Program-made: the position numbers and the translations under genes
Notes under the pieces: generated by a model
The model's input: only the letters and a program-made list of their open reading frames with translations
What the model was told of the DNA's origin: nothing
The model's database searches: none
Shown: positions 10,883-64,000 of the stretch, piece by piece
Numbering within the stretch: position 1 is the first letter of the stretch
How the letters are laid out: the number at the start of each line of letters is the position of its first letter
IMG/VR virus record: IMGVR_UViG_3300046167_000798
Length of the DNA stretch: 64,000 nt
Reading direction: 5' to 3' (one strand)
From: a virus
Taxonomy: Duplodnaviria > Caudoviricetes

Positions 10883-13449
10883 TTATCCTGTGTTAGAAGC
10901 TCCGTATGCAGAGTTACTCATTTTACTTTCTGATTTTTTACCTATTAAATCAGTTACAATAGTTCCATCTATATAAACATCAAAACTTTTCTTTTCTATT
11001 GCCGATACAACTCCTTGTAATCCAGCAGTTATTTGTTCACTTATAATACTTAGTGATTCATTTTCAACAGATGATACTTCGGATGAACTATTATCACCTC
11101 CACCACCAAATGCACTAAATAACATTCCTAATCCTGCTCCAGCAACTCCTAATCCTAATAGAGTTGGTAACGCCGCAATACCAGCAACTCCCAATAATCC
11201 AAGTGAAACAGCTAATGCAGCAAATGCCGCAGATAACATAAATATTCCACCTACCATCGATATTAGACCAGTTAGATGTGGCCCAATTACAGTAAGTGTT
11301 TGTAATCCACTTGCTAATTGATTTAATCCAAATCCTAATGCCGCAACGGCCGCACCGATTAAGAACATTCCAGCGGCGGCGGTTAATATTACTGCCGCTT
11401 GAGGTCCACTAAATAATAACCCCAATCCAAACATCGCCGCAGTTAGTAGTACCATACCACCTATTGCCATTCCTATTTCTTTTAATCCAACATTAGAAAA
11501 TTCTTGTAATGCCTTTCCAAGTATAAAGAGTGAACCTGCAATTAAAACCATTGCTGCCGCACCTTTAACTACATCGGTCATTTTTATTCCTTTCATGGCT
11601 CCTGTTAATTTACTAACACCACCACCTGCTTTTCCACCAGCATCTGGTGTAACTGAATCGGTTATTTTTGGAGTATCTCCAACACCTTTCATTGCTCCAG
11701 CTTTTAACTTACCAAATAAATTACCTGTTTTTTGGCCAATTGGAGAATCTTTTATTTTAGTTCCAAGAGATGAAGCCAATCCTCCTAACTTAGCACCAGC
11801 TCCTCCAAATAGTTTTGAAACACCAGAAGCAGCCATCATTGTTAGGTTTTTAAGTACCTTTGCAGAGTTTTTAACCATACCACCCATGTTTATACCCATA
11901 TCCTTTAAGAAAGGAGATGCTTGTCCTGCAGCGATTGCAAATCCACCTAATCCTTTTAATGATTTACCAAGTGGTCCTGATGCAAATGCTGATAAACTTT
12001 GTGACCAAGTTTCAAATGTTGATAATTGCATTGTACCATCATCATTTAACTTATCCATGTTTTTAGCCATTTTGGAAAGTTCTTCTACTGATAATCCTAA
12101 TGCTTCAGGCAGCAGCTCGTTTCTCAATAACATTCATTTTTTCAAATGCAACTTGTCCACCAAGTTGTTTTATTGTTTCCTTAACTGATGCTCCAATTTT
12201 TCCTTGGAAAGCAAGTCCTCTTGCTCTCGTTAGATTTATATTTCTACCTAATATAGCTGATAGTTCTAATTCTTTTGTAATTGATGATTCAAAATCAAGT
12301 AACCCATCTGTTACTTTACCAAGTGTACTCATCGATACACCAAGTTTTGCCGCTTGAACTGCTGATTTAGCTAATTCTTTTGTTGCCGATTGCACCATAT
12401 GAAGCAAATAATTCTGCATTCTGAGCAATATCTTCCATTGCCTGTGATGGTATAACTCCTTGTTGTTTAGCAAAATCTTTTGTCTGTTGTGCTAAATCTT
12501 GAGCCTGTTTTGCGGTTAAGTTACCAGACCTTGCTAAAATACCTGTAAGTTTTGCAGCTGATTCTCCACTAATACCCATGTTAACGGCCATTAGATTCGT
12601 ATTCAGTTGTGTTCTAAAAGAAGTTCCCTCTACACCCGCAAATTCATTTGCAAGTGTTTTTGATACTGCCGCCGCATCATCAAATACAAGACCAAGTGCA
12701 GTTGTTTGAACTGTGGCCATTCCCAAGAATCCACCAAACTCTCTAACATTCTTACCAATAGCCTCTGCTGCATATCCAGCTCCTATTAAAGCTCCACCCA
12801 ATACTCCACCTACTGTTTTTGAAAGTAATGATGCAGTTTCAAGGATTCCTCCAATAGTATCCTTCATTCCTTCATATACAGCCATTTGTTTATTTAGTAA
12901 ACCTTGTTGTTTTTCTGTTAAACTAGATAGATTTTTTGCTTTATCAAATTTTTCCTTTTCTATATCCAATTGAGCCTGTGCATCAGCACCAAGGCCTTTC
13001 ATACCTTTCATGATATCTTGAATCTTCTGTTCTATTACTGCTTTTGATACTTCATCTTCTGCAGATAATCCTAGTAATTCATCGTTAAGTGAACGAATAG
13101 AACTAAGTTTATCTCTAGTACTTGAATTCATACTATCAGATTTAGACATCAATTTTATTCTATCTCTTTCTAATCCTACAAATGATGCTTGAATACCAGA
13201 TAGACCTTTTAGTTTCTGTTCCTCTTGCATTAAGGTAGATATTCTATCTGATTGGTTTTTCTTTGCTTCGGTTATTTCACCATTTATTTCTTTTAATTTA
13301 GAAACAATATCGTTATACTGTTTATTTGATTTTTTAAACTCAGCTGCTAATGCGGCGTTACCCTTTGTCTCTTGTTCTAAGAGGGATAAGGCTTCTTTTT
13401 TAAGTGTATTACCTTCTTTAAGTAAATTATTTAGCTGTTGTTGAGTCAT
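10883..13449 (-). CDS. Tape measure protein (about 854 aa after removing two single-base insertions)
   Basis: Three track ORFs (12367-13449, 12105-12473, 10883-12133) join if one base is removed at 12390-91 and one at 12108-09. Ala/Gly/Leu-rich helical sequence directly after the chaperone. Confidence 0.8.
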
Positions 13450-32628: not shown

Positions 32629-32735
32629 CTAAATTTTATTTCCCATTTATTTTATATAAATATACCTTAATGTAGGTTTTGGGTTGCAACATAATACAAC
32701 TCCACCTATATAAGTATAAAATCTCCAAAAACTAT

Positions 32736-36167: not shown

Positions 36168-36222
36168 TAGTTATTCTCCTTTTTATTTGTTAAACTCATT
36201 ATATAAATATACATTTTCATCA

Positions 36223-46426: not shown

Positions 46427-48011
46427 TTATAGGTTTAAATCTTTAACGTAGATTTTACCATAGAATTCAGGTCTAACCATTTTCTTAGCGTATCTTGTCA
46501 TAACTCCTCTTCTTGGAGTGAAGTTAGTCGGGTCATACACTAGAGGTGTCATGATTAATGGTACATACGGTGCATAAACAGCTCCAGTTTCAAGGAAATT
46601 ACTTCCTTTAAATCCTAACAAGATTTCGTTTGAAGTCATGTAAGGGTTTTTGTAAACTGTATATCTGTTTGCAATAGAACCAACAGTAGTTACACCAGCT
46701 GCGAAAGATGAAGCATCTTTATCAGCAGATACACTAAATCCTGGGATAGATTCTAAAATAGTACATACATCAGGAGAAGCAACTACGAAGTTAGCTCCAC
46801 CTCTTAAAGTCAATTGGTGAATCTTGTTCGATACTTTGTTAAGTTTCGCACCAAGAGTCTGGAACCAAGAGTTCTTAGTATAAGCAGCAGCGTTTCCACC
46901 AGCTATCCATGAAGAACCATCGTACTCTTCACCTAAAGTTACTGACCAGTATTCAGTAGTTAAAGCATTAGCTTTTAACATATCAAGGATTTCAAGGTCA
47001 ATCTCTAGTGAGATGTACTCTGATAACATTGAAGTTAATTCAGCTTCAGCATCGATACTGTGGTAAGCATTTAAATCTTGAGCCAATTCAGGAGTCCATA
47101 CAGCCTTAAGTTTTCTTGTCTTAGCAACGATTGCTTCAGACTTCAACTCTAGGTCTACTTCTGGAATACCGATATCACTTGCAGGTTCTTGTGGAGAACT
47201 ATCTTCGAAGTCTCCTCTGTTTGCAGCGATTGGTTGTTGTGAATACTTTTACTGAATCTAAAGTTGTTGGGTTATTAGCACCATCAGCTTTTACGAAAAA
47301 GTAAAGGTTAGATGAATCAGCGTATGAGTGTGCAGAATACTGAGCAGCAATAACTGTATCAGCAACTACGAATGAACGTACACCATCAACATCAGGTCTA
47401 GTAAGTGTTGATTTAGCAACTCCTACTTTTGCAATTTGTCCAGCAGCGATAGAAGCTGAAAGACTTGAATCAAATCCAACATCAGACCATGATGCAGATG
47501 CGAATGATGCTACTGCAGCATTTGCTTCTGTTACGTCATTTACTGAATATCCGAATCTACCATCTCCGTAAAGACCGTTTACAGCAGAATCAGTTGAACC
47601 TAGGTCATTTCCTGTACCACCAAATAGTGATTTTCCACTAAATGCTGGGTTACCTGCTTGTGCAGTACCATACTTAAAGTCTAAGTAAAAAATTAGACCA
47701 GAAGGTAAGTTCATTGGTTGAACACTAACGAATTCTTTCGATGCGATTTCACCGAAGATTCTTCTTACTAGAGGAAGGGCTACACCACTCCACTCTTCGT
47801 TACCACCACCTGTACCGGTTGCAGTAGCTTCATCAAGCAATTGTTTTGCTTGGTTTTCTAACAATACAGATACCTGTGATTGTTCTCTCTCTCCTAAACC
47901 TTCAAGAAGTCCAGTTTGTTCCCATTTTCCTTTAAGTTCTCTTGTCTCAGCAAGCATTACTTGTTGTGGGTTCTTTCCTTCCATCAATTTAGATAAATCA
48001 AAATTTGCCAT
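46427..48011 (-). CDS. gp23: Major capsid protein (T4 gp23-like; about 527 aa after removing one insertion)
   Basis: ALPLVRRIF, FVSVQPMNLPSGLIFYLDF, AKTRKLKAVWTPELAQDLNAYH, YAPYVPL, PRRGVMTRY. Extra base in the T run at 47247-50. Confidence 0.95.
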
Positions 48012-48041: not shown

Positions 48042-49226
48042 TTAGTTAATATTAGCAAGTTTCTTGAATCTATCAGCCATCGTATTAGTTGATTCAGCTA
48101 TTACTTCTTTCGAAGGAGCAGTTGATGCAACTGGTTTAGATGCGAATGATTCAGTAATTTTCTTACTAACTTTTTGTTTTTTTGAAGTTCCATTAATCTT
48201 AAACGATTCAGCTAAAGTGCTAAATACAAGTTTAACTTCTCTTACATTACCTGTTCTGTCTAATGTCTCAACAACTTTCATTTTTTGGTCATTGTTTAAG
48301 TCATATGAACGGAATAATTTGTTTGTATAAAGTAATTTTGCATTAAGCAAGTTTACTTCATTGATTGTAGTTTTAAGTTCCTTGATTGTACTCATTGCTT
48401 CTTTTAATTCAGCTTGAGCTTCTTCAAGTTCATTAGTTTCTTCTACAACTTCTTCAGAAACTTCTTCATCTGATTCTTCTTCTTCTCCGTATCCCATTTC
48501 TTTTAGGATTTCGTCTAAGTCGATTTCTTCATCATCAGATTCTTCTGATACTTCTTCTTCTTCAGAGTGGTCTTCATCACCTTCTTCAGAAATTTCTTCT
48601 TCTTCAGATTCTTCACCTTCATTGTGGTGTTCATCTTCGTGAGATTCGATTTCATCAGATGCGATATCAGCAACTTCTTCCTCTTCTTCATCATCAAGTT
48701 CTTCTTCAAGTTCTTTAATGATAGCTTCAAGGTCAAGTTCATCTTCTTCTTCTTCTTCTGCTACTTCTTCTTTAGATTCTTCAGAGTGAGTTTCATCAAC
48801 TTCCTCATCAGATTCTTCTTCTTCAGCAACAACTTCAGATTCTTCAGATACTTCTTCTTCAGATACTTTTTCTTCTTCAGCTTCTTCAGCAACAACTTCA
48901 GTTTCTTCAGATACTTCTTCTGTTTCTTCAGATACAGTTTCAGTTGATTCTTCAACTTCTTCTTTATCTTCTTCTTCAGTTACAGTTTCTTCGGATACTT
49001 CTTCTGTAGCTTCTTCAACTGTTTCAGTTTCTTCTACTACTTCGTTTTCTTCAATTTCTTCTGAATCTTCACCTTCTTCAATTTCTTGTTGAAGTTTCTG
49101 AGATAGAATAGATTGTAAACGAGGTGTAAAAGCTTCCTCAAGAGCTATCTTAGCATTTGCAATTGCAGTTTCTCTAACGGCTTTTGCATCAGCGATAGCT
49201 TCTTTTAACAAATTTGAGTTTGCCAT
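48042..49226 (-). CDS. Prohead core scaffold protein (gp22-like), extremely acidic
   Basis: LLKEAIADAKAVRETAIANAK; about 250 aa Glu-rich; EVNLLNAKLLYTNKLF; immediately precedes the MCP. Confidence 0.85.
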   Translation of the reverse strand: MANSNLLKEAIADAKAVRETAIANAKIALEEAFTPRLQSILSQKLQQEIEEGEDSEEIEENEVVEETETVEEATEEVSEETVTEEEDKEEVEESTETVSEETEEVSEETEVVAEEAEEEKVSEEEVSEESEVVAEEEESDEEVDETHSEESKEEVAEEEEEDELDLEAIIKELEEELDDEEEEEVADIASDEIESHEDEHHNEGEESEEEEISEEGDEDHSEEEEVSEESDDEEIDLDEILKEMGYGEEEESDEEVSEEVVEETNELEEAQAELKEAMSTIKELKTTINEVNLLNAKLLYTNKLFRSYDLNNDQKMKVVETLDRTGNVREVKLVFSTLAESFKINGTSKKQKVSKKITESFASKPVASTAPSKEVIAESTNTMADRFKKLANIN

Positions 49227-49764: not shown

Positions 49765-50109
49765 TTAAGAACCTTTACCTGTTCCTGATTTTCTTCCTTT
49801 GGTATGTGTAGAAACATTGATAGGTTTCTTACCCTGTCCTGCAGATGATTTACCACCTCTATTAGATTTATTTTGTGCTGCTCTTTTTCTACGAGTTGCA
49901 GATTCTTTTTCTTTTTTACTCATAGTTTTGGCTTTAGCGGCAGGAACACATTTAGCATATCCTTTTTTCTTACCACTTGTACCACATGGAGGATGTTTAC
50001 CACTTTTATCTTTTTTACCGATGTTAACCCACTTGGATTTAAACCAGTTTCTCAAATCTTCATTTGTGGTTTCTTCAAATATCTCGTCTATGATATCTTG
50101 TAATCTCAT
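49765..50109 (-). CDS. Basic predicted head-internal protein
   Basis: MRLQDIIDEIFEETTNE leader; DLRNWFKSKWVNI..HPPCG..YAKCVPA domain seen in T4-like phages. Confidence 0.7.
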   Translation of the reverse strand: MRLQDIIDEIFEETTNEDLRNWFKSKWVNIGKKDKSGKHPPCGTSGKKKGYAKCVPAAKAKTMSKKEKESATRRKRAAQNKSNRGGKSSAGQGKKPINVSTHTKGRKSGTGKGS

Positions 50110-51536
50110 TATTTACCTAATTGGAATAATTTTTCTTCTGCAGCTGCATTAGTTCTGTAATCGTAATGTTTTGGATTTACTCCAAAATCTTTTAGGGATT
50201 TTTCTAACCAAATTCTATACTTTCTTTTACCATACTTTTTTTCCATGGTATCAAGTACATCGTAAAATATCTTTTCAAATTTAACTTTTTTTACTAAATC
50301 TTTGATTTGTTTTTTATCTTCTACCATTGGATTATATCCTTGTGGTACACCATCATCCTTACCTTCAGCGAATTTCATTAATCCTCTTACTCTTTTTATT
50401 AATGTACCTGCAGGAATTCCATAGGTATCACTCATTACATCTTGAGTAAACTTGTTTGATAGGAAGTTAGATAATTCTTTTTTAGTTGCAATACCACTCT
50501 TAAAATCATCTCTAGCAATTCTATCTAATTCTTTAGCATCTATCTTACCTTTGAAGTATGCAGTAAGTGCATCTGCTTTGTAGTTGTATTTACCTTCGTT
50601 TACTGATTCATTTACATCATACATCTTACTGTTTCTACCAACAGATATAAGAGTTAAACCTTTATGTTTCTTACTTAACTTAGCAAATTCTTTTTGTGCT
50701 TTGTTGATATCTCCATCACCTGGTCTTTTACCACCATCTTGGTAATAAACTTTATCGTAATCTTGTTTCCTTTTATCAAACTTATCTACTATTACTAATA
50801 TTTCGTTTACTGATTCTCTTGTTAGTTTATATCCTTGTTTTGCAAGTGTTCCAACAAAATCACTTAAATCTTTTTTGTTCTTGAAGATTTTTATATCAAA
50901 GAAATCACTACCATCTTTGTGTTTCTTTTTTCCATCGTGATAAGATATTGTGTATTTTGCTTTACCAATACCATCTTGTCTTTTGAATCTTTTCTTACCT
51001 TCGTTCTTCTTACCCTTTTCCTCATATCCATTTGCGAATGCTGCTTTTCTTTGAGCATCTGATGAGAATCCTTCGTTCTTAGAAATTAATTCATCTACAT
51101 CTTTATGAACATCTTTGTAGTTGTTAAATTTTTGTTTACGAATAGCACTATAAATTGCTAATGAGTATTTTTGTGAGTTGTTGTGAATTTTACTTTTAAT
51201 AAAGTTACCAGATTTTTCAGCTGATTTAGAATCTTTCATTTCAACATCATTTACTGCAGTTGAAAATATTTTAAAAGCTTCAAAATGATTCTTCTTGTTA
51301 TAATCCATTACCATATCTTCGATAAAAGATAATGAAGATTTCATATTCTCTTTGTTTTGTTTGAAAACTTTGGTTGCCATAGGGTCACCTTTTTTCAAGA
51401 ATCGTACAAACTCTTCTTGTTTTTTCTTGACCTGACTCTTTTCATCAAAGTAATCTTTCTTTCTAAAAAGATTGAATACTTTTTCAAATTCTTTATTAGG
51501 GGATTTGAATCTTTCGTTGATTAACATTTTTTCCAT
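50109..51536 (-). CDS. Multi-module predicted head-internal polyprotein
   Basis: Modules separated by ESVNE/KNE/AE sites; may be fused to the upstream ORF. Confidence 0.65.
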   Translation of the reverse strand: MEKMLINERFKSPNKEFEKVFNLFRKKDYFDEKSQVKKKQEEFVRFLKKGDPMATKVFKQNKENMKSSLSFIEDMVMDYNKKNHFEAFKIFSTAVNDVEMKDSKSAEKSGNFIKSKIHNNSQKYSLAIYSAIRKQKFNNYKDVHKDVDELISKNEGFSSDAQRKAAFANGYEEKGKKNEGKKRFKRQDGIGKAKYTISYHDGKKKHKDGSDFFDIKIFKNKKDLSDFVGTLAKQGYKLTRESVNEILVIVDKFDKRKQDYDKVYYQDGGKRPGDGDINKAQKEFAKLSKKHKGLTLISVGRNSKMYDVNESVNEGKYNYKADALTAYFKGKIDAKELDRIARDDFKSGIATKKELSNFLSNKFTQDVMSDTYGIPAGTLIKRVRGLMKFAEGKDDGVPQGYNPMVEDKKQIKDLVKKVKFEKIFYDVLDTMEKKYGKRKYRIWLEKSLKDFGVNPKHYDYRTNAAAEEKLFQLGK

Positions 51537-52478
51537 CCTCCACCAGCTGCTTTATACTTTTTCGGCTGCCCAACCATTAGCGTATGCTGATGGGTAAACA
51601 TCAAATTTTTGTTTTGCTTGAGATTTATAAGAACTCCACTTAGATGGGTTAGTAGGACAATTTTTCTCCATTAGAGTTTCAACCTTTTGACCGAACTCAT
51701 ATAATGCAGTTTCTTGTTCGTTTAAATCTTTTACTTCTTTTATTGTAGTAGTGATAGAACCATCATCGTTTCTCATTGATACTGCTACAGGTTCTTCGTT
51801 TAAAGATTCGTTACATCCTCCTTCGGTTGTTCCATTACATCCACATCCACAATCTTCTTTGGATTCTAAAATACTATCCAATTTTTTACTAACATGAATT
51901 TCTATTCCTTTAGGTTTACTTGATATAATATATTCTTTAGATGTTTCGAACATACTATACCCATTTACTTTAAATTTAGATTTCCTTATAAAAGGACCAA
52001 TTTGTTTTAATAATGAATCGGCAAAAATTTCAGAAGGAGCATCTTCATTTATTGATAATTCTTTAGATTCGTTCATTCCTAAACGTTCTTTCATTTGTTC
52101 TTCTGATATCTCACCAATCTTATAGTATCTTGAAAGGATGTGTCCCATATCTTCATATAATCCACCCATTCTTTGGTCAAGTGCCTTAGCTTCAGAAGCA
52201 ACTTTATCGAATTGTTTACCCAACTTATCCAATTCACTCATGTTTCTTTTAATCGTGTGTTTATCAAACCAATCATCACCTTCGTGAATTGCTAATGTTC
52301 TAGCTGCTTCTGTAATACCACCAAGTGTTTCTGCCACTTGAGTAATATCAGATTTTCTATCCATTGATTCTTGATATTTGTTGTAAGTAGAAACGATTTC
52401 TAAGAAGTGTTTTTTAACTTCTAAAGAAAGAGGTCTCTTTTCTTCTGATTCGTTCATTAGTTGGGTTAATTTAATCAT
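51523..52478 (-). CDS. Predicted head-internal protein
   Basis: MIKLTQLMNE leader and AAGGAG SD. Removing one base at 51563 restores FDVYPSAYANGWAAKKYKAAGGGWK. Confidence 0.7.
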
Positions 52479-52488
52479 TGTACTCTCC

Positions 52489-53652
52489 TTAAAATAATTT
52501 TTTTAATTTTTTATCACCATAAACATCGGCGAAATACCATTTCTTATCTTTCATATTGTATAAATATATGTATTCTGCTCCACCACTTCTATCTGCAGTA
52601 TCTACATATTTACTAAAATCTTTCATATCACCTTTAGTTGGTTTCCCATTTTTGTAATATTCAATTTCTTTATCATCAAAGATTCCTCTTGCTCCACCCA
52701 TCTTGATTAGTTTAAGAACATCTTTATCACTTTTCATGTGATGTTTTAAACCTGGTTTCATATTTGATGGATATCCATCGTAGTGAACGTATGCAGAAAC
52801 AATCTTACCATTTCTACCAATTACACCAACTTGAGAACGAGTTCCTTCATTGATTATTGATTCTGGTAATAAATCTCTTAGATTTGTAGAGGTATTCTCT
52901 AAACTCATTTTCTTATCAAATAAATCTTTTAAATCTGCCCTTACATCAGCACTTCTAACAAAATCTGAACCAGAATCTTCAATATCATCTACAAACATTT
53001 TTGCAGTTTCTAAATCTCTTCCTTTAAGATATGGGAATATATCTGATTCTGCATAATCTCTCATTTCATCGCCATCTAAATCACCAATATTATTTTGAAC
53101 ATCATCTATCTGTGCATCAGAGTATTCATCTCTTACAGGTTCATCTTTCTTAGGTTCTTCTCCTTTAGGTTCTTCTTTTGGAGAATCTAAAGTCATTTTC
53201 TTATCAAATAAATCTTTTAAATCTTTTCTTAAATCAGCACTTCTATCAAAATCATCCCCTGCCGCATCAATATCATCTACATACATTTTTGCAAGTTCCA
53301 AATCTCTTCCTTTAAGATATGGGAATATATCTGATTCTGCATAATCTTGTATTTCATCACCAGGCATATCATCAATATTATTTTGAACATCTTCTATCTG
53401 TGCATCGGTTTGGTCATCCCTTACAGGTTCATCTTTCTTAGGTTCATCTTTCTTAGGTTTATCAAAGATGTTTACTTTAGGAGTATCTTTTTTATCATCA
53501 CCATCTTCTGAATCTTTTATTTTAGAATGAGTTCCAGCCTTTACAGCAGCATCTCTTGCATCTTTTGTTTTGAATACAGCAGTTTCTCCACTCTTTTTAG
53601 ATGTAGCAGTAAACGTTTCTTCTTCTTTTAATAAATCAGTTAATTTAATCAT
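52489..53652 (-). CDS. Predicted head-internal polyprotein: leader, duplicated acidic domain, GTRS/HYDGYP domain
   Basis: MIKLTDLLKE leader; two ~80-aa copies; IINE-GTRSQV..YVHYDGYP. Confidence 0.75.
   Translation of the reverse strand: MIKLTDLLKEEETFTATSKKSGETAVFKTKDARDAAVKAGTHSKIKDSEDGDDKKDTPKVNIFDKPKKDEPKKDEPVRDDQTDAQIEDVQNNIDDMPGDEIQDYAESDIFPYLKGRDLELAKMYVDDIDAAGDDFDRSADLRKDLKDLFDKKMTLDSPKEEPKGEEPKKDEPVRDEYSDAQIDDVQNNIGDLDGDEMRDYAESDIFPYLKGRDLETAKMFVDDIEDSGSDFVRSADVRADLKDLFDKKMSLENTSTNLRDLLPESIINEGTRSQVGVIGRNGKIVSAYVHYDGYPSNMKPGLKHHMKSDKDVLKLIKMGGARGIFDDKEIEYYKNGKPTKGDMKDFSKYVDTADRSGGAEYIYLYNMKDKKWYFADVYGDKKLKKLF
52903..53450 (-). repeat. Direct duplication of about 250 bp
   Basis: EPVRD..DAQI.DVQNNI.D..GDE..DYAESDIFPYLKGRDLE.AKM.VDDI...KKM occurs twice. 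Confidence 0.9.
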
Positions 53653-53837
53653 AATTTCTTTGTCTCCTTTTTGAGTGTATATAAATCAAGTTTACCATCT
53701 TCTGTTAACTTAACATCATAATTTGTTTTTCTTATATCATTGTGACCGCCTTTAAATGGAACACTTGCAACGTTTCTTGTTACTGTTCCTAATTTAATTT
53801 TATTATCACCTAAGTATTTTTTTATATCAAATGCCAT
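53649..53837 (-). CDS. Small hypothetical protein
   Basis: MAFDIKKYL start; overlaps the next gene by ATGA. Confidence 0.7.
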   Translation of the reverse strand: MAFDIKKYLGDNKIKLGTVTRNVASVPFKGGHNDIRKTNYDVKLTEDGKLDLYTLKKETKKL

Positions 53838-53840
53838 AAT

Positions 53841-54434
53841 TTAGTTTAATTCTGTTATAATTTCTCTCATCAAATCTTGTGATTTACACCACTCGTTACA
53901 AACTTCACCTTGTTTAATAAGTTGTTTGTTAACAGATTCATTCATCGGAGTCATAAATGCTCCATGTGTTGATGGATTAGAAACAAAATCCCAACCAATC
54001 AATTCAAAATCTTCACCTACTTGTACTTTACCACCAGATAGAGGTTCTACTGAACCCATACCTCTTGATGATATACCTAAAAGGATTCCTGCTTTAAGTA
54101 GTTCTTTTAAGATGTTACCAGATGGGGTCGGTAAAATCTCAACTGTTCCTACTAAATCATCATTATCCCAATGTATCTCTCTTACGTTATGAGATACGTT
54201 CTTTAGATTGATTACAGAAGAATCTGGATGGTCTAATTCACCAAGTGCTCTTCTTTCTTTAATAAGTGTTTCGTATTTTTTTGCTTCTCTCATCAAAATT
54301 TCTTTAGGATATATCCTTCCATTTTGATTTTCAGCACCTGCTCTTTGTAAAATACCCTTAACGATAGTTCTTCCACTCTCGTCCTCGTTTACTCTACCTT
54401 CGAATAGGTTTGTTTCTATTAATAAATTTGCCAT
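53841..54434 (-). CDS. gp21: Prohead core protease (T4 gp21-like)
   Basis: GILQRAGAENQNGRIYP, ALGELDHP, NVSHNV, LGISSRGMGS, DFVSNPSTHGA. Start at 54434 (TAATG). Confidence 0.93.
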   Translation of the reverse strand: MANLLIETNLFEGRVNEDESGRTIVKGILQRAGAENQNGRIYPKEILMREAKKYETLIKERRALGELDHPDSSVINLKNVSHNVREIHWDNDDLVGTVEILPTPSGNILKELLKAGILLGISSRGMGSVEPLSGGKVQVGEDFELIGWDFVSNPSTHGAFMTPMNESVNKQLIKQGEVCNEWCKSQDLMREIITELN

Positions 54435-54622
54435 TATGCTCCCCAACTTTTACGTTTTTTAAACAAATCAAAAAAGATTGCCGATACCTCTTGTCTGATG
54501 ATTTTTCTAATTTCATCTCTATCAGACTCATTGAGTTCCTCAGTAACTAAAAAATGGTTTACACCAAATTTAGCATTTGAGATTTCCTCATTGATGATAT
54601 CGAACAATTCACTTTTCTTCAT
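54434..54622 (-). CDS. Small prohead-region protein
   Basis: IINEE/LNES sites; IRQEVSAIFFDLFKKR motif; translationally coupled to the protease gene. Confidence 0.7.
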   Translation of the reverse strand: MKKSELFDIINEEISNAKFGVNHFLVTEELNESDRDEIRKIIRQEVSAIFFDLFKKRKSWGA

Positions 54623-54623
54623 C

Positions 54624-55058
54624 TTATTTTATCTTACCACTTCTTTCGAGTTCTTTTGCTGCACCGATTACATAACCCAATGCAGTTTTAAGGTCTCTAT
54701 TCATATATTTAGCAATCTTTTTGACTGCCATCATTACAATTCTTTTTTCTTCAGTAGAGTATCCTTCGTTTACCGACTCATCTTTTTTTTTTCCGTCTTT
54801 TTTCTCTATTGCCTTTTGAAGTGCCGGTGGTAATTTTTTCTGAGCATCTGTTAATTCAGAAACTTGTTCTTTTTTTGCTCCTCTACCTTTCCAAGTTTTT
54901 TCAATCTTGTTAAAGAATGCCTTCTTTTCTTCATCAGACATAGAAGGAATAGATTTACCTGCTTTTTCTAAGGCTCTTTTGAAAAATTCTTGATATTCAG
55001 ATTCTTCAATCATAGCTTCTCTAACTATGTTTTTTAAATGTTCTCTTGTTATTTTCAT
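54624..55058 (-). CDS. Predicted head-internal protein
   Basis: EYQEFFKRALEKAG..EEKKAFFNKI motif; ESVNE site; AGGAG SD. Confidence 0.7.
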   Translation of the reverse strand: MKITREHLKNIVREAMIEESEYQEFFKRALEKAGKSIPSMSDEEKKAFFNKIEKTWKGRGAKKEQVSELTDAQKKLPPALQKAIEKKDGKKKDESVNEGYSTEEKRIVMMAVKKIAKYMNRDLKTALGYVIGAAKELERSGKIK

Positions 55059-56101
55059 TTTTCTATCTCCTGTATAGTTCGAGCGATATTTATCAATCTC
55101 TCCTTTATCTTATAAATATGTTTATTTGTTCTTTTCCAATACTGATTGGAATCTAACTCATTCATTGTTTTAATTTTATTATACCAATTAAAAAACTTTT
55201 GAGTTTCTGCTAACTGATATTTTAATTCCTTTAAACCCATTGCCATCTTTTTATGAGGATGCATTGTTTCATCGTTTTTTAATTCTAACCAACGATTAAC
55301 TGGTCTCTTTACTTTAGCTTCGTTTATCGATTCTTTTAATCGATTCATTTTTTTATCAGTTACGAAATATGCAGAACCACCACCTGGAATTCCTTTTTCC
55401 ATATCTTGTAATCTCTTTACTTCTTTTTCAGCATCTTTAAATGTTCTGAATTCTTTTGGTGGTAATTTTTTATCTCTTTTTAAATCATATCCACCAACTA
55501 AAGATTTACCTCTTCCTCTACCTTTATTACGAGTAATATAGTATTTTGCTTCGTTTACTGATTCGTTAACTTTCTTTACGTGCTGAACAATCTTCTTAGC
55601 AAATGCAGGAGAAGTGATTTTAGCTATCTGAATAATAGTTTCTCTTCCATTAGGTCTGATACTCTTTACACTACCTCCACCTTTCATATCAGGAAACTTA
55701 CCATCCATTGAGTACCCATAATCTTTTATTGCAATAAGGTTACTACCTTTATCAAACATAAATTTGTAAGAACTTATTCTTGAACTATAAGAAATTCGTA
55801 TAGTTACTTCAAATTCACCTTCTTTATTTTTTTTATCAGAACCGATAACCATTCCGAATGATTCACCAGTTTTGTTGTTTCTACCTTTGATAGAAGCTTC
55901 ATCCATTTTACCAACTATTTTCATACCAAATTGAGTTGAAATCTTTTTCTTACGTTTTTTATCTTTAGCACCACCATCAGAAAATGCACCAGGTACATTA
56001 TACCCAGCTACATTGCCTGTTGCAGTTGCCTCATCCAATTCTTTTTCAACTTCTTGGATAAGTTCTTCTAAAAATTTATTAAGATTTTGTTCTATTGACA
56101 T
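55055..56101 (-). CDS. Predicted head-internal polyprotein
   Basis: LDE-ATATGNVAGYNVPGAF; modules bounded by MDE, ESVNE and ESINE. Confidence 0.7.
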   Translation of the reverse strand: MSIEQNLNKFLEELIQEVEKELDEATATGNVAGYNVPGAFSDGGAKDKKRKKKISTQFGMKIVGKMDEASIKGRNNKTGESFGMVIGSDKKNKEGEFEVTIRISYSSRISSYKFMFDKGSNLIAIKDYGYSMDGKFPDMKGGGSVKSIRPNGRETIIQIAKITSPAFAKKIVQHVKKVNESVNEAKYYITRNKGRGRGKSLVGGYDLKRDKKLPPKEFRTFKDAEKEVKRLQDMEKGIPGGGSAYFVTDKKMNRLKESINEAKVKRPVNRWLELKNDETMHPHKKMAMGLKELKYQLAETQKFFNWYNKIKTMNELDSNQYWKRTNKHIYKIKERLINIARTIQEIEK

Positions 56102-56951
56102 TTTTTATCTCCTTAACCAATTCATAAGACATCATTAAAGCCGAAACTTGGTCATCGGTAACTTTTTTACCAATTTTCTGTTTTTTCAAAACATTAATAG
56201 TTTCTTTCAACTTTATTTTTGTAATCTTATCTTTCATACTCTTATACATTGAATGTAATTCAGTAATAGTTTTGATTAATTCTGATTCAAAATATTCGTT
56301 GAACTTGGATGTGTTAGTAACATTATTAATATACTCTCTTAACAATCCTTTTTGTGATTTATCTAAAGTAGTATATTTTTTATTAAAAGTTTCAACAAGA
56401 ATCTTGTATGTCAATAACCTGAGGTCTTTCTCTTGTTTTCTATATTCTTCTACTAATTTATCTTGTTTAAGAACTTTAGAATCTTGGGAAATAGATGAAA
56501 TGTGCTCTACAATAGTAATTTTCGAATCGAATATATCCTTGACATCAAGAATATCATTCTTTTTACCTTCAAAAAGTTTATGAATTGAAGCTAAAATTTT
56601 ATAGTTTGTTACCGGGGAAGATAAAAAATTATTAATTTCAAAATTTTCTTTGATTGATTTTACAAGATTATATTTTTCTCGTTGAAGTTTTTTATAATTA
56701 ATTCTAGTATGTGCTTCTAATATAGCATCAATAAATTTTTCTGCTTTAGATTCACTATTATACTTTTCATTTATTAAAAGGTTAAATAATCTAAGTTCCT
56801 TAGACATTTCAGTACCTTTACCGTAGAATTCTCTGATTATTTCTTTTGACTTTTCTTCACTACCATTTAGTATTTCAACAGTAATCTGCCTTGTTAAAAG
56901 TTCAAAAAGGAAACCAGTATTCTTAAATTTTGAATGTTTTATTTTTTTCAT
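56079..56951 (-). CDS. Conserved prohead-region protein
   Basis: MKKIKHSKFKNTGFLFELLTRQIT; directly after the portal gene; late-promoter motif at 56992. Confidence 0.75.
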   Translation of the reverse strand: MKKIKHSKFKNTGFLFELLTRQITVEILNGSEEKSKEIIREFYGKGTEMSKELRLFNLLINEKYNSESKAEKFIDAILEAHTRINYKKLQREKYNLVKSIKENFEINNFLSSPVTNYKILASIHKLFEGKKNDILDVKDIFDSKITIVEHISSISQDSKVLKQDKLVEEYRKQEKDLRLLTYKILVETFNKKYTTLDKSQKGLLREYINNVTNTSKFNEYFESELIKTITELHSMYKSMKDKITKIKLKETINVLKKQKIGKKVTDDQVSALMMSYELVKEIKNVNRTKS

Positions 56952-57027
56952 CTTATTTTTTTCCTATTATGATATAGTAAAATTTCCCTACTATAAATAT
57001 AAATTTATAAAGTTAACAGAAATTTCT

Positions 57028-58793: not shown

Positions 58794-59183
58794 TTACCAT
58801 TTTCTACAAGACCAATACCTTGCTTTGTGTCTTGGTCCTGGTGAATCACAATTATGTCTAGCTCTAAATGCTTTTCTTGCATCTGGATTATTCTTTCGAA
58901 TAGACATTGTTTTTTCTCCTGATTTCTTTGCTGAACTTCCTCCATGTCCAAAGTTAACTTTTACAACGTTACCTTGTGGGTTTTTGACATATACCTTAAA
59001 TTTTTTAACATCACCTTGCATTGGTTTTCCAAGTTTAACTGTTCTACCTTGATACTCAGCTTCATTCATATCAGATTTGTATTCTTTCATGAACTCACAG
59101 AATTCTTTTATATCGTGATAATTTTCCACAGTATATTCTTCTGTGTATATTTCTTCGTTAAGTAAATTTTTTAATGATATCAT
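58794..59183 (-). CDS. Basic predicted head-internal protein
   Basis: MISLKNLLNE leader; AEYQGRTVKLGKP..KKFKVYV..VKVNFG..RARHNC..ARYWSC motif; AAGGAG SD. Confidence 0.75.
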   Translation of the reverse strand: MISLKNLLNEEIYTEEYTVENYHDIKEFCEFMKEYKSDMNEAEYQGRTVKLGKPMQGDVKKFKVYVKNPQGNVVKVNFGHGGSSAKKSGEKTMSIRKNNPDARKAFRARHNCDSPGPRHKARYWSCRKW

Positions 59184-59214
59184 AGTTATTTCTCCTTATA
59201 TTATAAATATACAA

Positions 59215-60808: not shown

Positions 60809-61498
60809 CTATTTTTTTCCTAGTTTCCAATACATAGAACCACCAACAAATGGTTTATACTCACCAAGTTGATTTGATATACCAATATTTAAACCGTAAA
60901 TATTTTGTTTTTTGTTTTTAAATAAAACATTACCACTAAGATTATTTAATCCATTGGTTTGGTCTATTCCTGTTCCGAATCCAATATAAAATTCATTTTT
61001 TGGTAACTCTTTTACTATTGTAGTATTATAAACTGTTGGAATTTTAAAGAACCAATCGATTTCTCTTGATTCAATTCTGTTTTGTGAAATAATATCGGTT
61101 AGAATACCAAATCCCAAATCTCCACTTGGTTTGTTACCTACTGAATCAGTAACTACATCAGGAAAATCATATGCAAGATTCAATGTATCTTTAACTGTTA
61201 CCTTTGAGAAGTAATCTTTAATAATTGCAAGTGAATCTACATCAACTGGTATCTCTACTTCTTTAATTACTTCTTTTGTAATATACTTCGGTACATACTT
61301 TGTTACTTTAACTTCTTTTTCTACATATATCGTATCAGTTTTTGATTCTAATAACTCATATTGTTCTCCATCTACTTCTACAAGAGTCTTATCTCCATAA
61401 TCTTCCCCACAACCTCTTAAAAATAAAATAATTCCTAATAAAAGAAGGATTACTACTTCCCTCCATCGTTTAATTAATAAACTAAATATAATGCTCAT
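60809..61498 (-). CDS. Membrane-anchored protein, possibly spanin-like lysis accessory
   Basis: N-terminal hydrophobic helix ending LRGC; DTIY..K.V repeats; beta-rich C-terminus. Confidence 0.45.
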   Translation of the reverse strand: MSIIFSLLIKRWREVVILLLLGIILFLRGCGEDYGDKTLVEVDGEQYELLESKTDTIYVEKEVKVTKYVPKYITKEVIKEVEIPVDVDSLAIIKDYFSKVTVKDTLNLAYDFPDVVTDSVGNKPSGDLGFGILTDIISQNRIESREIDWFFKIPTVYNTTIVKELPKNEFYIGFGTGIDQTNGLNNLSGNVLFKNKKQNIYGLNIGISNQLGEYKPFVGGSMYWKLGKK

Positions 61499-62143: not shown

Positions 62144-62203
62144 TGTTATATATTAGGTTATAATTTATATATAAATATATCAAATTAAAGAAACCGATAA
62201 ATT

Positions 62204-64000
62204 TTAGAAGAAAATACCAAGTATTTGATTTACGGATGCAAATGTACCAGTAAGTTTAAAAGTATTTCCTTTATACAAGAACACGATACCTTCATTTGGT
62301 ACAATTTTTTTAGAACCACCAATAGAATTTAATCTACCAAGTTCCAATTTAAGTTTTTCTATCTTTTTTGGGTCACCCGATTTCTTAACATCTTTGATTG
62401 TTTTATCAATTCGTTTTTTCATATCACGAACTGCTGAATCAGGATTAACTGTAAGTGCTGATGAAGTAAATTCTAATACTTCTGCTCCAAGACCAAGGAA
62501 AATCTGTTCGAACTTCATTAAGTTCTTCTTACCAATCTTCTTTTGGTCATCTTTATCTGTTTTCTTAGCCCATTCTAATGTTTTTTCATCAGTAATGTTC
62601 TTTTTATCTAATCTAAATCCCTTATCCATAAACGCCCATCTCTTAACTAACCCCATTTTGGTTTTGTTATCGAGTGTTGATGGTGAATTTTTATCAACCC
62701 ATTGTTCCCACCATGCTTGGTGATAGTTCGCAACACCATCAGTATCCTTTAAACCAAATTCTTTTTGTAGTTTAGATATCTGTGATGAGTATTTACTTCT
62801 TTTCTTTGATAAATCGGTAGATTTGGGTAGTTTTACAACAGGTGGGCCTTTGATTGTATAACTATCTTGTACATCTTTGTTAACTTGTTTAATCATACCA
62901 GCCAATATTCTAGCCGCATCACCATTCTCTCCAATTGCAACACCTTCTTCATTAAATTCCATAGTACCATGGAACACAAGTAACGCCTGACCATAAGGAA
63001 TAACGTTTACTGATGTTGGATATATCACTTCAAGGTTCATAAAACACGCACCTTGTTTAAAAATCTTATCTCTTTGTTTATCGTTAAGTGATTTGATTGC
63101 ATTTGAGAGGTCTTTCATTGCATAATTGTAAGCATCACTCAATCCACCCCTACCTTGGAACTTATCTGATACCCCTTGTATATCCAAAGCATTCTCACCT
63201 CTGTTTTTTAGGTGTCCTTTGTTTCTGGCCGCTACCAATCTACCATCTCTCCATGAAATAGCTAGTGCTTGACCATCTGTTTTCTCTCTTGTGAACTCTA
63301 ATGTACCTTCGAGTGCTCTATTTACGATATCTTTAAGTTGTCCAAAGGTTAAATTGATATCAGTATCAAATGGGTGAGACATATGTCCATACGCACCACC
63401 TTCTTGGAGTAATTTAGATTCGTTTATGTTTTCTTTGATTAGTTGTTGTGGTGTTTTAGTGTTCGGTAAAAACATTTCAACTAACTTATTATCAATATCA
63501 CTTATTAATTGTTCTATTTCATTCATAAACTTTTCCTTTTCTTTATTTTTAATCCACAATCCTATTTCAGGTCCTTTGATATCAGATGGAGCATCCTTTC
63601 CACCAATAGATAAGTTAAAGTTTACAAACTTTTTCATATCTTTTCCAACCAACTTACCAAATTTAAGGATTTGGTCATCTGATAAAGATGTTTTTTGTTG
63701 TAGTTTCTTGAATACTACAATTTCTTCTGGTCTAAAGTGTTGTAGTGATACTAAAAATACAATATTATTTTTTTCGTCATTAGAATAAGTTAATTTGTTT
63801 AATTGTTTTCCTAATACCGAAGGTGAATTCTTTTTTAATAGTGATGCAATGAACAAAATATAATCATTATCCTTGATGTAAGGTTTAGATATTTTAAGAT
63901 TTGGGAATATTAGTGAAGTGAATCCAATCTTATCATTCAACTCCATATACTTTTTAGTATCTTTAGCCTGATTTGATTGATTTTATAACCTCATCTCTAA
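62204..64000 (-). CDS. Polyprotein: C-terminal part of a CCA-adding-enzyme-like domain plus an ATP-dependent RNA-ligase-like domain; 5' end outside the window
   Basis: RDEVIKSIKS(A)K..ELNDKIGFTSLIFP and LSIGGKD..GPEIG are CCA-like (one insertion at 63967-68). Ligase motifs EKTDG, ARNKG, NLEV, VFHG, EGIVF and FKLTG. Confidence 0.65.

Follow-up and report, generated by a model that had tools for sequence, protein, structure and literature searches.

RNA repair in phages has so far been known as an early, cytoplasmic function. Its heal-and-seal logic is that of the bacteriophage T4 pathway, in which Pnkp heals the ends of tRNAs broken by the anticodon nuclease PrrC and the lysine-adenylate ligase Rnl1 (gp63), carrying motifs I to V, then seals them; fusion of healing and sealing enzymes is usual in known RNA repair, as in Trl1 and Pnkp. 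Here we describe a related locus at one end of a 64,000-nucleotide stretch of DNA from a tailed virus (Duplodnaviria; Caudoviricetes; IMG/VR record IMGVR_UViG_3300046167_000798), the whole of which is referred to below as the window. On the minus strand, positions 62204-64000 encode the C-terminal part of a protein that ends in an RNA-ligase-like domain, and we regard it as reasonably likely that they hold the 3′ third of a single late gene, in a T4-like myophage abundant in the sea, whose product strings together separable enzymes of RNA repair.

Like the T4 pair, this chain would provide phage-encoded tRNA repair in which ends are first healed and then sealed. It departs from that pair in both composition and setting. 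The phosphatase of T4 Pnkp is of the HAD type, whereas here an HD domain is found, together with a CCA-adding enzyme; and the T4 enzymes are early and cytoplasmic, whereas those described here are fused, encoded beside head genes and headed by leaders that resemble capsid-targeting sequences (CTS).

The leaders invite comparison with the T4 internal proteins and Alt. In T4, the cleavage site of gp21 follows L/I-x-E, and proteins can be loaded into the head by an N-terminal CTS of no more than 10 residues (PMC9026906). The family described here resembles these proteins in its leaders, which close with [LIV]-x-E some 10 residues from the N-terminus, in the Glu-ended seams between its modules and in the presence of a gp21 homolog in the genome, and its cargo would, like Alt, be enzyme delivered with the DNA. 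Where the T4 cargo is one small protein, the chain here reaches about 1900 residues and five to seven enzymes; its preferred seam is (E)S-[VIL]-N-E, and its processing and packaging are predicted from sequence.

A third comparison is with polyvalent proteins, which are likewise large, combine many effector domains in shuffled order, are encoded among virion genes and are predicted to enter the host early (Iyer et al., 2017; PMC5512222). As in that group, many effector domains are gathered in one chain and architectures vary greatly among close relatives. Polyvalent proteins have a MuF, portal or metallopeptidase domain as their anchor and are presumed to be self-cleaving (PMC5512222), whereas the constant element of the present family is its C-terminal ligase-like domain and the head protease would do the cutting; the survey of polyvalent proteins found no association with RNA ligases (PMC5512222). 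In the literature on DUF6267, phage Mel-JY01, packaged RNA ligases and packaged CCA enzymes, neither this family nor a repair kit carried in the capsid was found described. Phage tRNA repair, capsid-targeted cargo and polyvalent virion proteins are each already known; the enzyme family at the core of this locus is one without a library model.

A Ligase-Like Domain at the C-Terminus

Most of the locus is occupied by a 580-aa open reading frame (ORF; 62204-63946, minus strand) that begins with an ATG at 63946 and ends with a stop codon at 62204-62206. Motifs and predicted structure assign its residues 183-580 (62207-63400), which start GGAYGHMSHPFD, to the covalent nucleotidyltransferases, as a divergent member of RNA-ligase type. 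The motifs of that superfamily stand in canonical order: motif I, EKTDG (63272-63286; residues 221-225), a KxDG motif; Ia, ARNKG (63215-63229); III, MNLEV (63026-63040); IIIa, VFHG (62966-62977); IV, EGIVF (62279-62293); and V, FKLTG (62246-62260). Lys222 of EKTDG (63281-63283) aligns with K99 of T4 Rnl1 and is the predicted nucleotidyl-accepting lysine. Motifs IV and V lie together at 62246-62293, and no C-terminal domain of the Rnl1 or Rnl2 type follows them, the chain ending 13 residues past motif V.

Conservation across relatives rules out a chance occurrence of the motifs. In an alignment of 36 sequences, 39-77% identical to the query, the K, D and G of motif I, R77 and N78 of motif Ia, F161 and H162 of motif IIIa, G389 of motif IV and the lysine of motif V are invariant, and E142 of motif III and E388 of motif IV are retained in at least 90%. 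Across a wider set of 138 cluster representatives, the catalytic motifs were found in 118-135, with K.DG present in 133. An exhaustive HMMER search returned 1776 cluster representatives (50% identity), and the domain is nearly always C-terminal in proteins of 400-1930 aa; the family is virus-only.

An AlphaFold (AF2) model of the domain, with a pLDDT of 90.5 and a pTM of 0.84, was compared with 48,161 chains. The top eight matches, including TbREL1, Naegleria Rnl5 (NgrRnl), T4 Rnl1 (Z 8.3), fungal Trl1 and T4 Rnl2, were all RNA ligases, at Z scores of 8.7-7.5 that fall in the middling range of the tool, with 180-211 residues aligned over model residues 18-412; DNA ligases and capping enzymes ranked below them (Z 7.0-5.1). 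A Foldseek search of the PDB likewise placed T4 Rnl1, Rnl3 and Trl1 at the top (E ~5e-3). Aligned to T4 Rnl1 with hhalign, the motif I lysine (K58 in this comparison) falls on K99 and the motif III glutamate (E142) on E159, at an E-value (0.089) that is not significant.

No model in Pfam, PHROG or NCBIfam matches the window protein (none in Pfam at E <=1), which falls below the cut-off for the Rnl1 (PF09511) and Rnl2 (PF09414) profiles; PF09414, RNA_ligase, was the commonest weak Pfam family among the 36 relatives, matching three of them (best E 4.8e-4). Sequence matches in the PDB, weak hits to ribosomal protein eS6 within the lysine-rich insert described below, were rejected as spurious. DUF6267 (PF19782) matched neither the window protein nor its relatives in a protein scan, and a search for PF19782 that covered three relatives, with E-values of up to 10 allowed, gave no match, a result of little weight as none of the control genomes gave one either. 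The ESM Atlas ties the family to clusters with DUF6267 in a minority of their members, a link made through language-model features and predicted shape only.

Several features set the family apart from known ligases: a helical insert, about 180 residues long, that separates motif IIIa from motif IV, the absence of a further domain after motif V, a motif V with a single lysine, and an unusual conserved motif, GGAYGHMxHPFD, at the start of the domain. The insert is lysine-rich, all-helical and family-specific, and spans approximately residues 369-549 (62300-62842) as judged from the secondary structure of the model and the gaps in ligase alignments. It places the accessory helical domain inside the nucleotidyltransferase domain, whereas in T4 Rnl1 it is appended C-terminally. 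From the model, the C-terminal domain very probably has the ligase-type nucleotidyltransferase fold. RNA sealing is probably its function, and it is a fairly good candidate, with the explanation to which it belongs, for a branch of the covalent (lysyl-NMP) nucleotidyltransferases that is new and confined to viruses. The first-pass annotation of the window had proposed a ligase-like domain with motifs I to V, and both the fold and every motif were recovered where it had placed them.

The CCA-Adding Enzyme and Its Putative Partners in RNA Repair

The N-terminal piece of the 580-aa ORF, residues 1-143 (63518-63946), ends in FMNE and contains LSIGGKD (63593-63613) and GPEIG (63560-63574). Judged by a model of the whole module, built from a relative 96% identical to the window protein, it comprises the body and tail domains of a CCA-adding enzyme of class II, as the same annotation had suggested. 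The relative's protein, P0002, matches solved CCA-adding enzymes by sequence over residues 40-395 (E down to 1.5e-33), and the AlphaFold model of its module (pLDDT 91.6) superimposes over model residues 5-356 on 1miv_A, the Geobacillus stearothermophilus CCA-adding enzyme (Bacillus stearothermophilus in the PDB title), with 327 residues aligned at Z 26.8 and an rmsd of 3.6. Window residues 1-143 correspond to residues 214-356 of this model. Directly upstream, off the window, intact relatives match PF01743 (PolyA_pol head; E 3e-30) and PF12627, and P0002, P0271 and others carry the catalytic head motifs GGAVRD...DFD, RRD and EDPLR (EDPLRKLRALRF).

The phage enzyme shares with class II enzymes such as 1miv the full head-neck-body-tail fold and, in intact relatives, the motifs GGxVRD...DxD, RRD and EDxxR. 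It differs in being one module of a polyprotein, and in the position of the HD domain, which is C-terminal in the Escherichia coli CCA enzyme and lies upstream in the phage chain. Some relatives have two copies that are 71% identical. One of these is a protein of 1312 aa (P0122) in which two complete CCA-adding modules flank an HD domain in a single chain, an arrangement that may reflect a division of labor between CC addition and A addition.

Upstream of the CCA enzyme, the full gene, about 1646 aa in total, encodes a HIGH nucleotidyltransferase, a KOW-like module, a zinc ribbon, a basic module and an HD domain. Other members are arranged differently. The largest (P0151; 1930 aa) runs from a HIGH nucleotidyltransferase through DUF5661, an AAA_33 P-loop kinase, an HD domain and a CCA-adding enzyme to the ligase-like domain, and relatives at least 90% identical in the C-terminal domain differ in their sets of N-terminal modules. 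On a 189-kb contig, the same functions are encoded as separate, overlapping genes, NTase-DUF5661, CCA enzyme, kinase, HD and ligase, directly upstream of TerL and a T4-type portal. The chain of the window phage has no kinase module, and the P-loop kinase is found in relatives. With a kinase, a phosphoesterase and a ligase brought together as in T4 Pnkp/Rnl1, and the CCA enzyme adding 3′-end rebuilding, the module set looks, by association of its domains, like a heal-and-seal tRNA repair kit.

An Interrupted Reading Frame

Upstream of the ATG at 63946, a second frame enters from beyond the end of the window and runs through ...RDEVIKSIKSG to a TAA at 63963-63965 (63963-64000, minus strand); an in-frame ATG lies 17 nt after this stop. 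In intact relatives, this sequence is neck and body of the CCA-adding module and belongs to the same ORF, which continues off the window. Alignment to relatives and metagenome contigs places an extra G (GG in the window, G elsewhere) at 63967/63968, where it splits the gene. The protein of a JGI contig (L002; gene P0002, 832 aa) is 96% identical to that of the window, and the last 121 bases of the window differ from this contig solely by the one additional minus-strand G; with that base removed, the junction reads RDEVIKSIKSAKDTKKYMELNDK, which matches the reconstruction made in the first-pass annotation. The base is also missing from seven of seven IMG/VR relatives, identified through a pattern search for the junction, in which the gene is a single ORF of 1650-1651 codons wherever the whole of it lies on the contig. 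Contigs from four seawater runs of four studies lack it as well, and are otherwise identical over 490-600 nt.

Since neither the relatives nor the seawater contigs have the extra base, the true gene is, by this comparison, one ORF of about 1646 codons of which the window holds the 3′ third, with the upstream part of the window's gene being read from relatives only, and the frameshift most likely arose in the assembly of this record or is, at most, a rare variant. A programmed frameshift is ruled out, as the extra base is absent from every other source. The one-base repair at 63967 that had been proposed from the letters alone thus stands; so do the CCA-adding and ligase-like parts that were named, in a gene far larger (~1646 aa) than was visible in the window.

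The major capsid protein gene of the same record (phrog_138; 46427-48011, minus strand) is also found in two ORFs (47199-48011 and 46427-47146), its frame switching near 47228-47245 (...KVFTTTN / PIAANRGDF...). As the gene is essential, this split is probably another one-base error of the record, and a second frameshifted gene of this kind suggests that the record is error-prone. Overlapping minus-strand ORFs at 10883-13449 (416, 122 and 360 aa) and at 3-2466 (440 and 422 aa) look like further frameshift-broken genes, which would fit an error-prone assembly.

Leaders, Seams and Predicted Late Expression

Between the CCA-adding module and the ligase-like domain lies a linker of 39 residues (144-182; 63401-63517) that holds four of the five [LI]xE triplets of the window protein, LVE at 155-157, IKE at 170, INE at 174-176 and LQE at 180-182. 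These are candidate head-protease sites; the linker is disordered in the part that was modeled, with a pLDDT below 50 for residues 165-185. A head maturation protease of the gp21 type is encoded by the same phage (53841-54446, minus strand; phrog_207, E 3.9e-49).

Leaders resembling capsid-targeting sequences are found in the head module of the window and in relatives of the gene, the N-terminus of the window's own gene being off the window. When defined as a Met followed by a few residues, a hydrophobic pair, any residue and a Glu by residue 8-12, the leader occurs in 7 of 61 coding-strand ORFs, six of them in the head module between the capsid and terminase genes, versus none of 56 opposite-strand ORFs; examples are MIKLTQLMNE, MIKLTDLLKE and MISLKNLLNE. 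A full-length relative starts MNELSKFLVE, another N-terminus in the family is MIRLGKILNE, and where the genes are unfused the CCA enzyme starts MKTKYSIVE, the kinase MKISKILE and the ligase MIRLKKLLNE. Among 136 representatives, 97 have an [LIVM]xE ending at residue 6-16, compared with 24.8 after shuffling.

The seams between modules carry motifs resembling (E)S-[VIL]-N-E. In the N-terminal parts of 118 representatives, [LIVMF]NE was counted 214 times against 72.5 expected; within the window, it occurs 19 times in head-core ORFs (2.5 expected) and 7 times in tail ORFs (6.3 expected). Inside the ligase-like domain, [LI]xE is present at 0.48 of expectation, whereas [LI]xD, [LI]xK, [LI]xQ and [LI]xN are at 1.06-1.37, a depletion such as selection against internal cuts would give. 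A homolog of the first (HIGH nucleotidyltransferase) module, gp154 of the cyanophage S-CREM2, has the leader MKNFSSFLTE and has been detected in purified virions by mass spectrometry (PMC10665884). A profile search for the ligase-like domain in S-CREM2 found nothing convincing (E 0.0036). From these observations, which include the leader of about 10 residues ending in L/I-x-E, seen in relatives, and the gp21-family protease in the same phage, we put at slightly better than even the chance that the leader targets the chain, that the gp21-like protease cleaves it behind the Glu residues of the seams and that the products are packaged in the capsid.

In this phage clade, the motif (T)ATATTTATA is a candidate for the late promoter. 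It occurs in the window at 20 sites on the coding (minus) strand versus three on the other strand, often 18-40 nt upstream of the starts of structural genes (for example at 62170-62177, 59202-59209, 56992-56999, 36202-36209 and 32655-32662), and stands 22 nt upstream of the full-length gene; read on the opposite strand, ATATTTATA is the T4 late box TATAAATA.

A Proposed Role and Its Alternatives

Starting from what the analysis shows, namely the fold, the motifs, the domain associations and the frame found intact in nature, we propose the following scheme. The gene would encode, in order, a HIGH nucleotidyltransferase, small modules, an HD phosphoesterase, a class II CCA-adding enzyme and a C-terminal ligase. 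Its N-terminal 10-residue leader would target the chain to the prohead core, where cleavage by the gp21-like protease behind the Glu residues of the seams would free the enzymes, which would then travel in the capsid into the next host. There the HD domain, joined in relatives by the P-loop kinase, would heal the ends of tRNAs cut by host anticodon or acceptor-end nucleases, the CCA enzyme would rebuild 3′ ends and the ligase would seal. For sealing, AMP would first be attached to Lys222 of the EKTDG motif and then passed to a 5′-phosphate RNA end, which would be joined to a 3′-OH, with the inserted helical domain probably holding the tRNA.

In its full extent, namely a complete CTS-tagged tRNA repair kit that is cut by the head protease, injected with the DNA and able to counter tRNA-cleaving defenses before any phage gene is expressed, the proposal is a tentative one to which we give somewhat less than an even chance; injection, and action before phage gene expression, are steps that we infer. 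If correct, it would describe a late-made, capsid-tagged and genome-delivered repair kit, a new pre-emptive counter-defense against anticodon and acceptor-end nucleases, built around a structurally distinct new branch of RNA ligases from a large virus-only family (1776 clusters at 50% identity) that might also serve as a source of reagents. As the phage is common in seawater (20 runs from 19 studies), such a system may shape the outcome of phage-host encounters in the ocean.

Several observations weigh against this scheme. The structural likeness on which the ligase assignment draws is middling on the scale of the tool (Z 7.5-8.7), with a Foldseek E-value of ~5e-3 and an hhalign E-value of 0.089. 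Motif V, (F/Y)-K-L-T-G, keeps the first lysine invariant and has Thr at the second position of the K-x-K found in classical ligases. The virion detection in S-CREM2 consists of three peptides from a distant homolog of another module and bears on the first module only. About one-fifth of relatives have Cys, Met or Ala in place of the Glu just before the ligase-like domain (LLLMGG, LLLCGG), so that Glu-specific cleavage at this position cannot be universal in the family. Of 12 clustered HSP-end positions in BLAST, 4 coincide exactly with a Glu, a mapping of seams too fuzzy to decide the matter. The motif statistics draw on homologous sequences, so their z-scores overstate independence, and late expression of the gene is inferred from the promoter-like motif.

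These points give room to other readings. The protein might stay whole in the cytoplasm as a multi-enzyme RNA-repair protein comparable to fungal Trl1 or bacterial Pnkp/Hen1, made late against tRNA damage that late proteins trigger, and neither packaged nor processed by the head protease. The domain content fits this reading, fusion of healing and sealing enzymes being the norm in known RNA repair; the support for packaging is indirect, and the seam before the ligase domain has no Glu in some relatives. It would leave unexplained the leader that the family has in common with head-core ORFs, the twofold depletion of [LI]xE that is specific to the interior of the ligase domain, the enrichment of xNE seams also seen in head-core ORFs and the presence of gp154 in S-CREM2 virions, and we consider it unlikely, if the most serious of the alternatives. 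More improbable still is a C-terminal domain with the nucleotidyltransferase fold that is not a polynucleotide ligase and nucleotidylates something else, be it a protein, a small molecule or an RNA end resembling a cap, or that has a non-catalytic role in assembly such as that of T4 gp63 in tail-fiber attachment. The single-lysine motif V, the unusual GGAYGHMxHPFD motif, the large helical insert and the moderate likeness to solved ligases would suit such a protein, as would its place next to morphogenesis genes, given that T4 Rnl1 is also annotated with a role in tail-fiber attachment. Against this reading stand the nearest structures, which are RNA ligases and neither DNA ligases nor capping enzymes, the recurrent association of the domain with CCA-adding enzymes, an HD domain and a kinase, and the conservation of the full set of catalytic residues.

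It is, lastly, very improbable that the frameshift is real in the phage genome, the gene being split or decaying and the 580-aa ORF translated alone from the ATG at 63946. The window sequence itself contains the extra base, and the in-frame ATG just past the upstream stop would allow such translation; yet the base is found in no other source, including a near-identical contig possibly of the same population, a CCA enzyme cut inside its body domain would be inactive, and the essential capsid gene of the same record is likewise frameshifted. For the preferred reading, a packaged and processed repair chain, the first-pass annotation had offered the linker motifs and a position in the head operon beside the terminase. 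The gene does adjoin the terminase and head genes, and the packaging claim has gained the gp21-like protease, the leaders, the seam motifs, the depletion of [LI]xE and the virion detection of a homolog, while cleavage and packaging of the window protein itself stay at the level of prediction.

The Phage and Neighboring Genes

The TerL of the window is closest to those of Microcystis phage Mel-JY01 (56%) and the Flavobacterium phages vB_FspM_immuto (54%). Mel-JY01 has a 639-aa gene (11243-13162 of PP395634.1) combining the NTase and ligase-like modules a few genes upstream of its terminase. The stretch described here is present in 20 seawater or marine viral metagenome runs from 19 studies.

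The head module of the window contains further ORFs with leaders. Small ORFs of 62-475 aa at 49765-56951 and 58794-59183 (minus strand) have CTS-like leaders and repeated ESVNE/ESINE motifs and probably encode scaffold, core or internal proteins that the gp21-like protease processes; a 394-aa ORF at 48042-49226, of which 31% is Glu, is among the head-module set. Between the polyprotein gene and TerL lies an ORF of 229 aa (60809-61498, minus strand), whose hydrophobic start followed by a Cys (LFLRGCG) resembles the signal of a lipoprotein; its positional counterpart in another relative (L012, 8308-8955) has a TonB_C hit.

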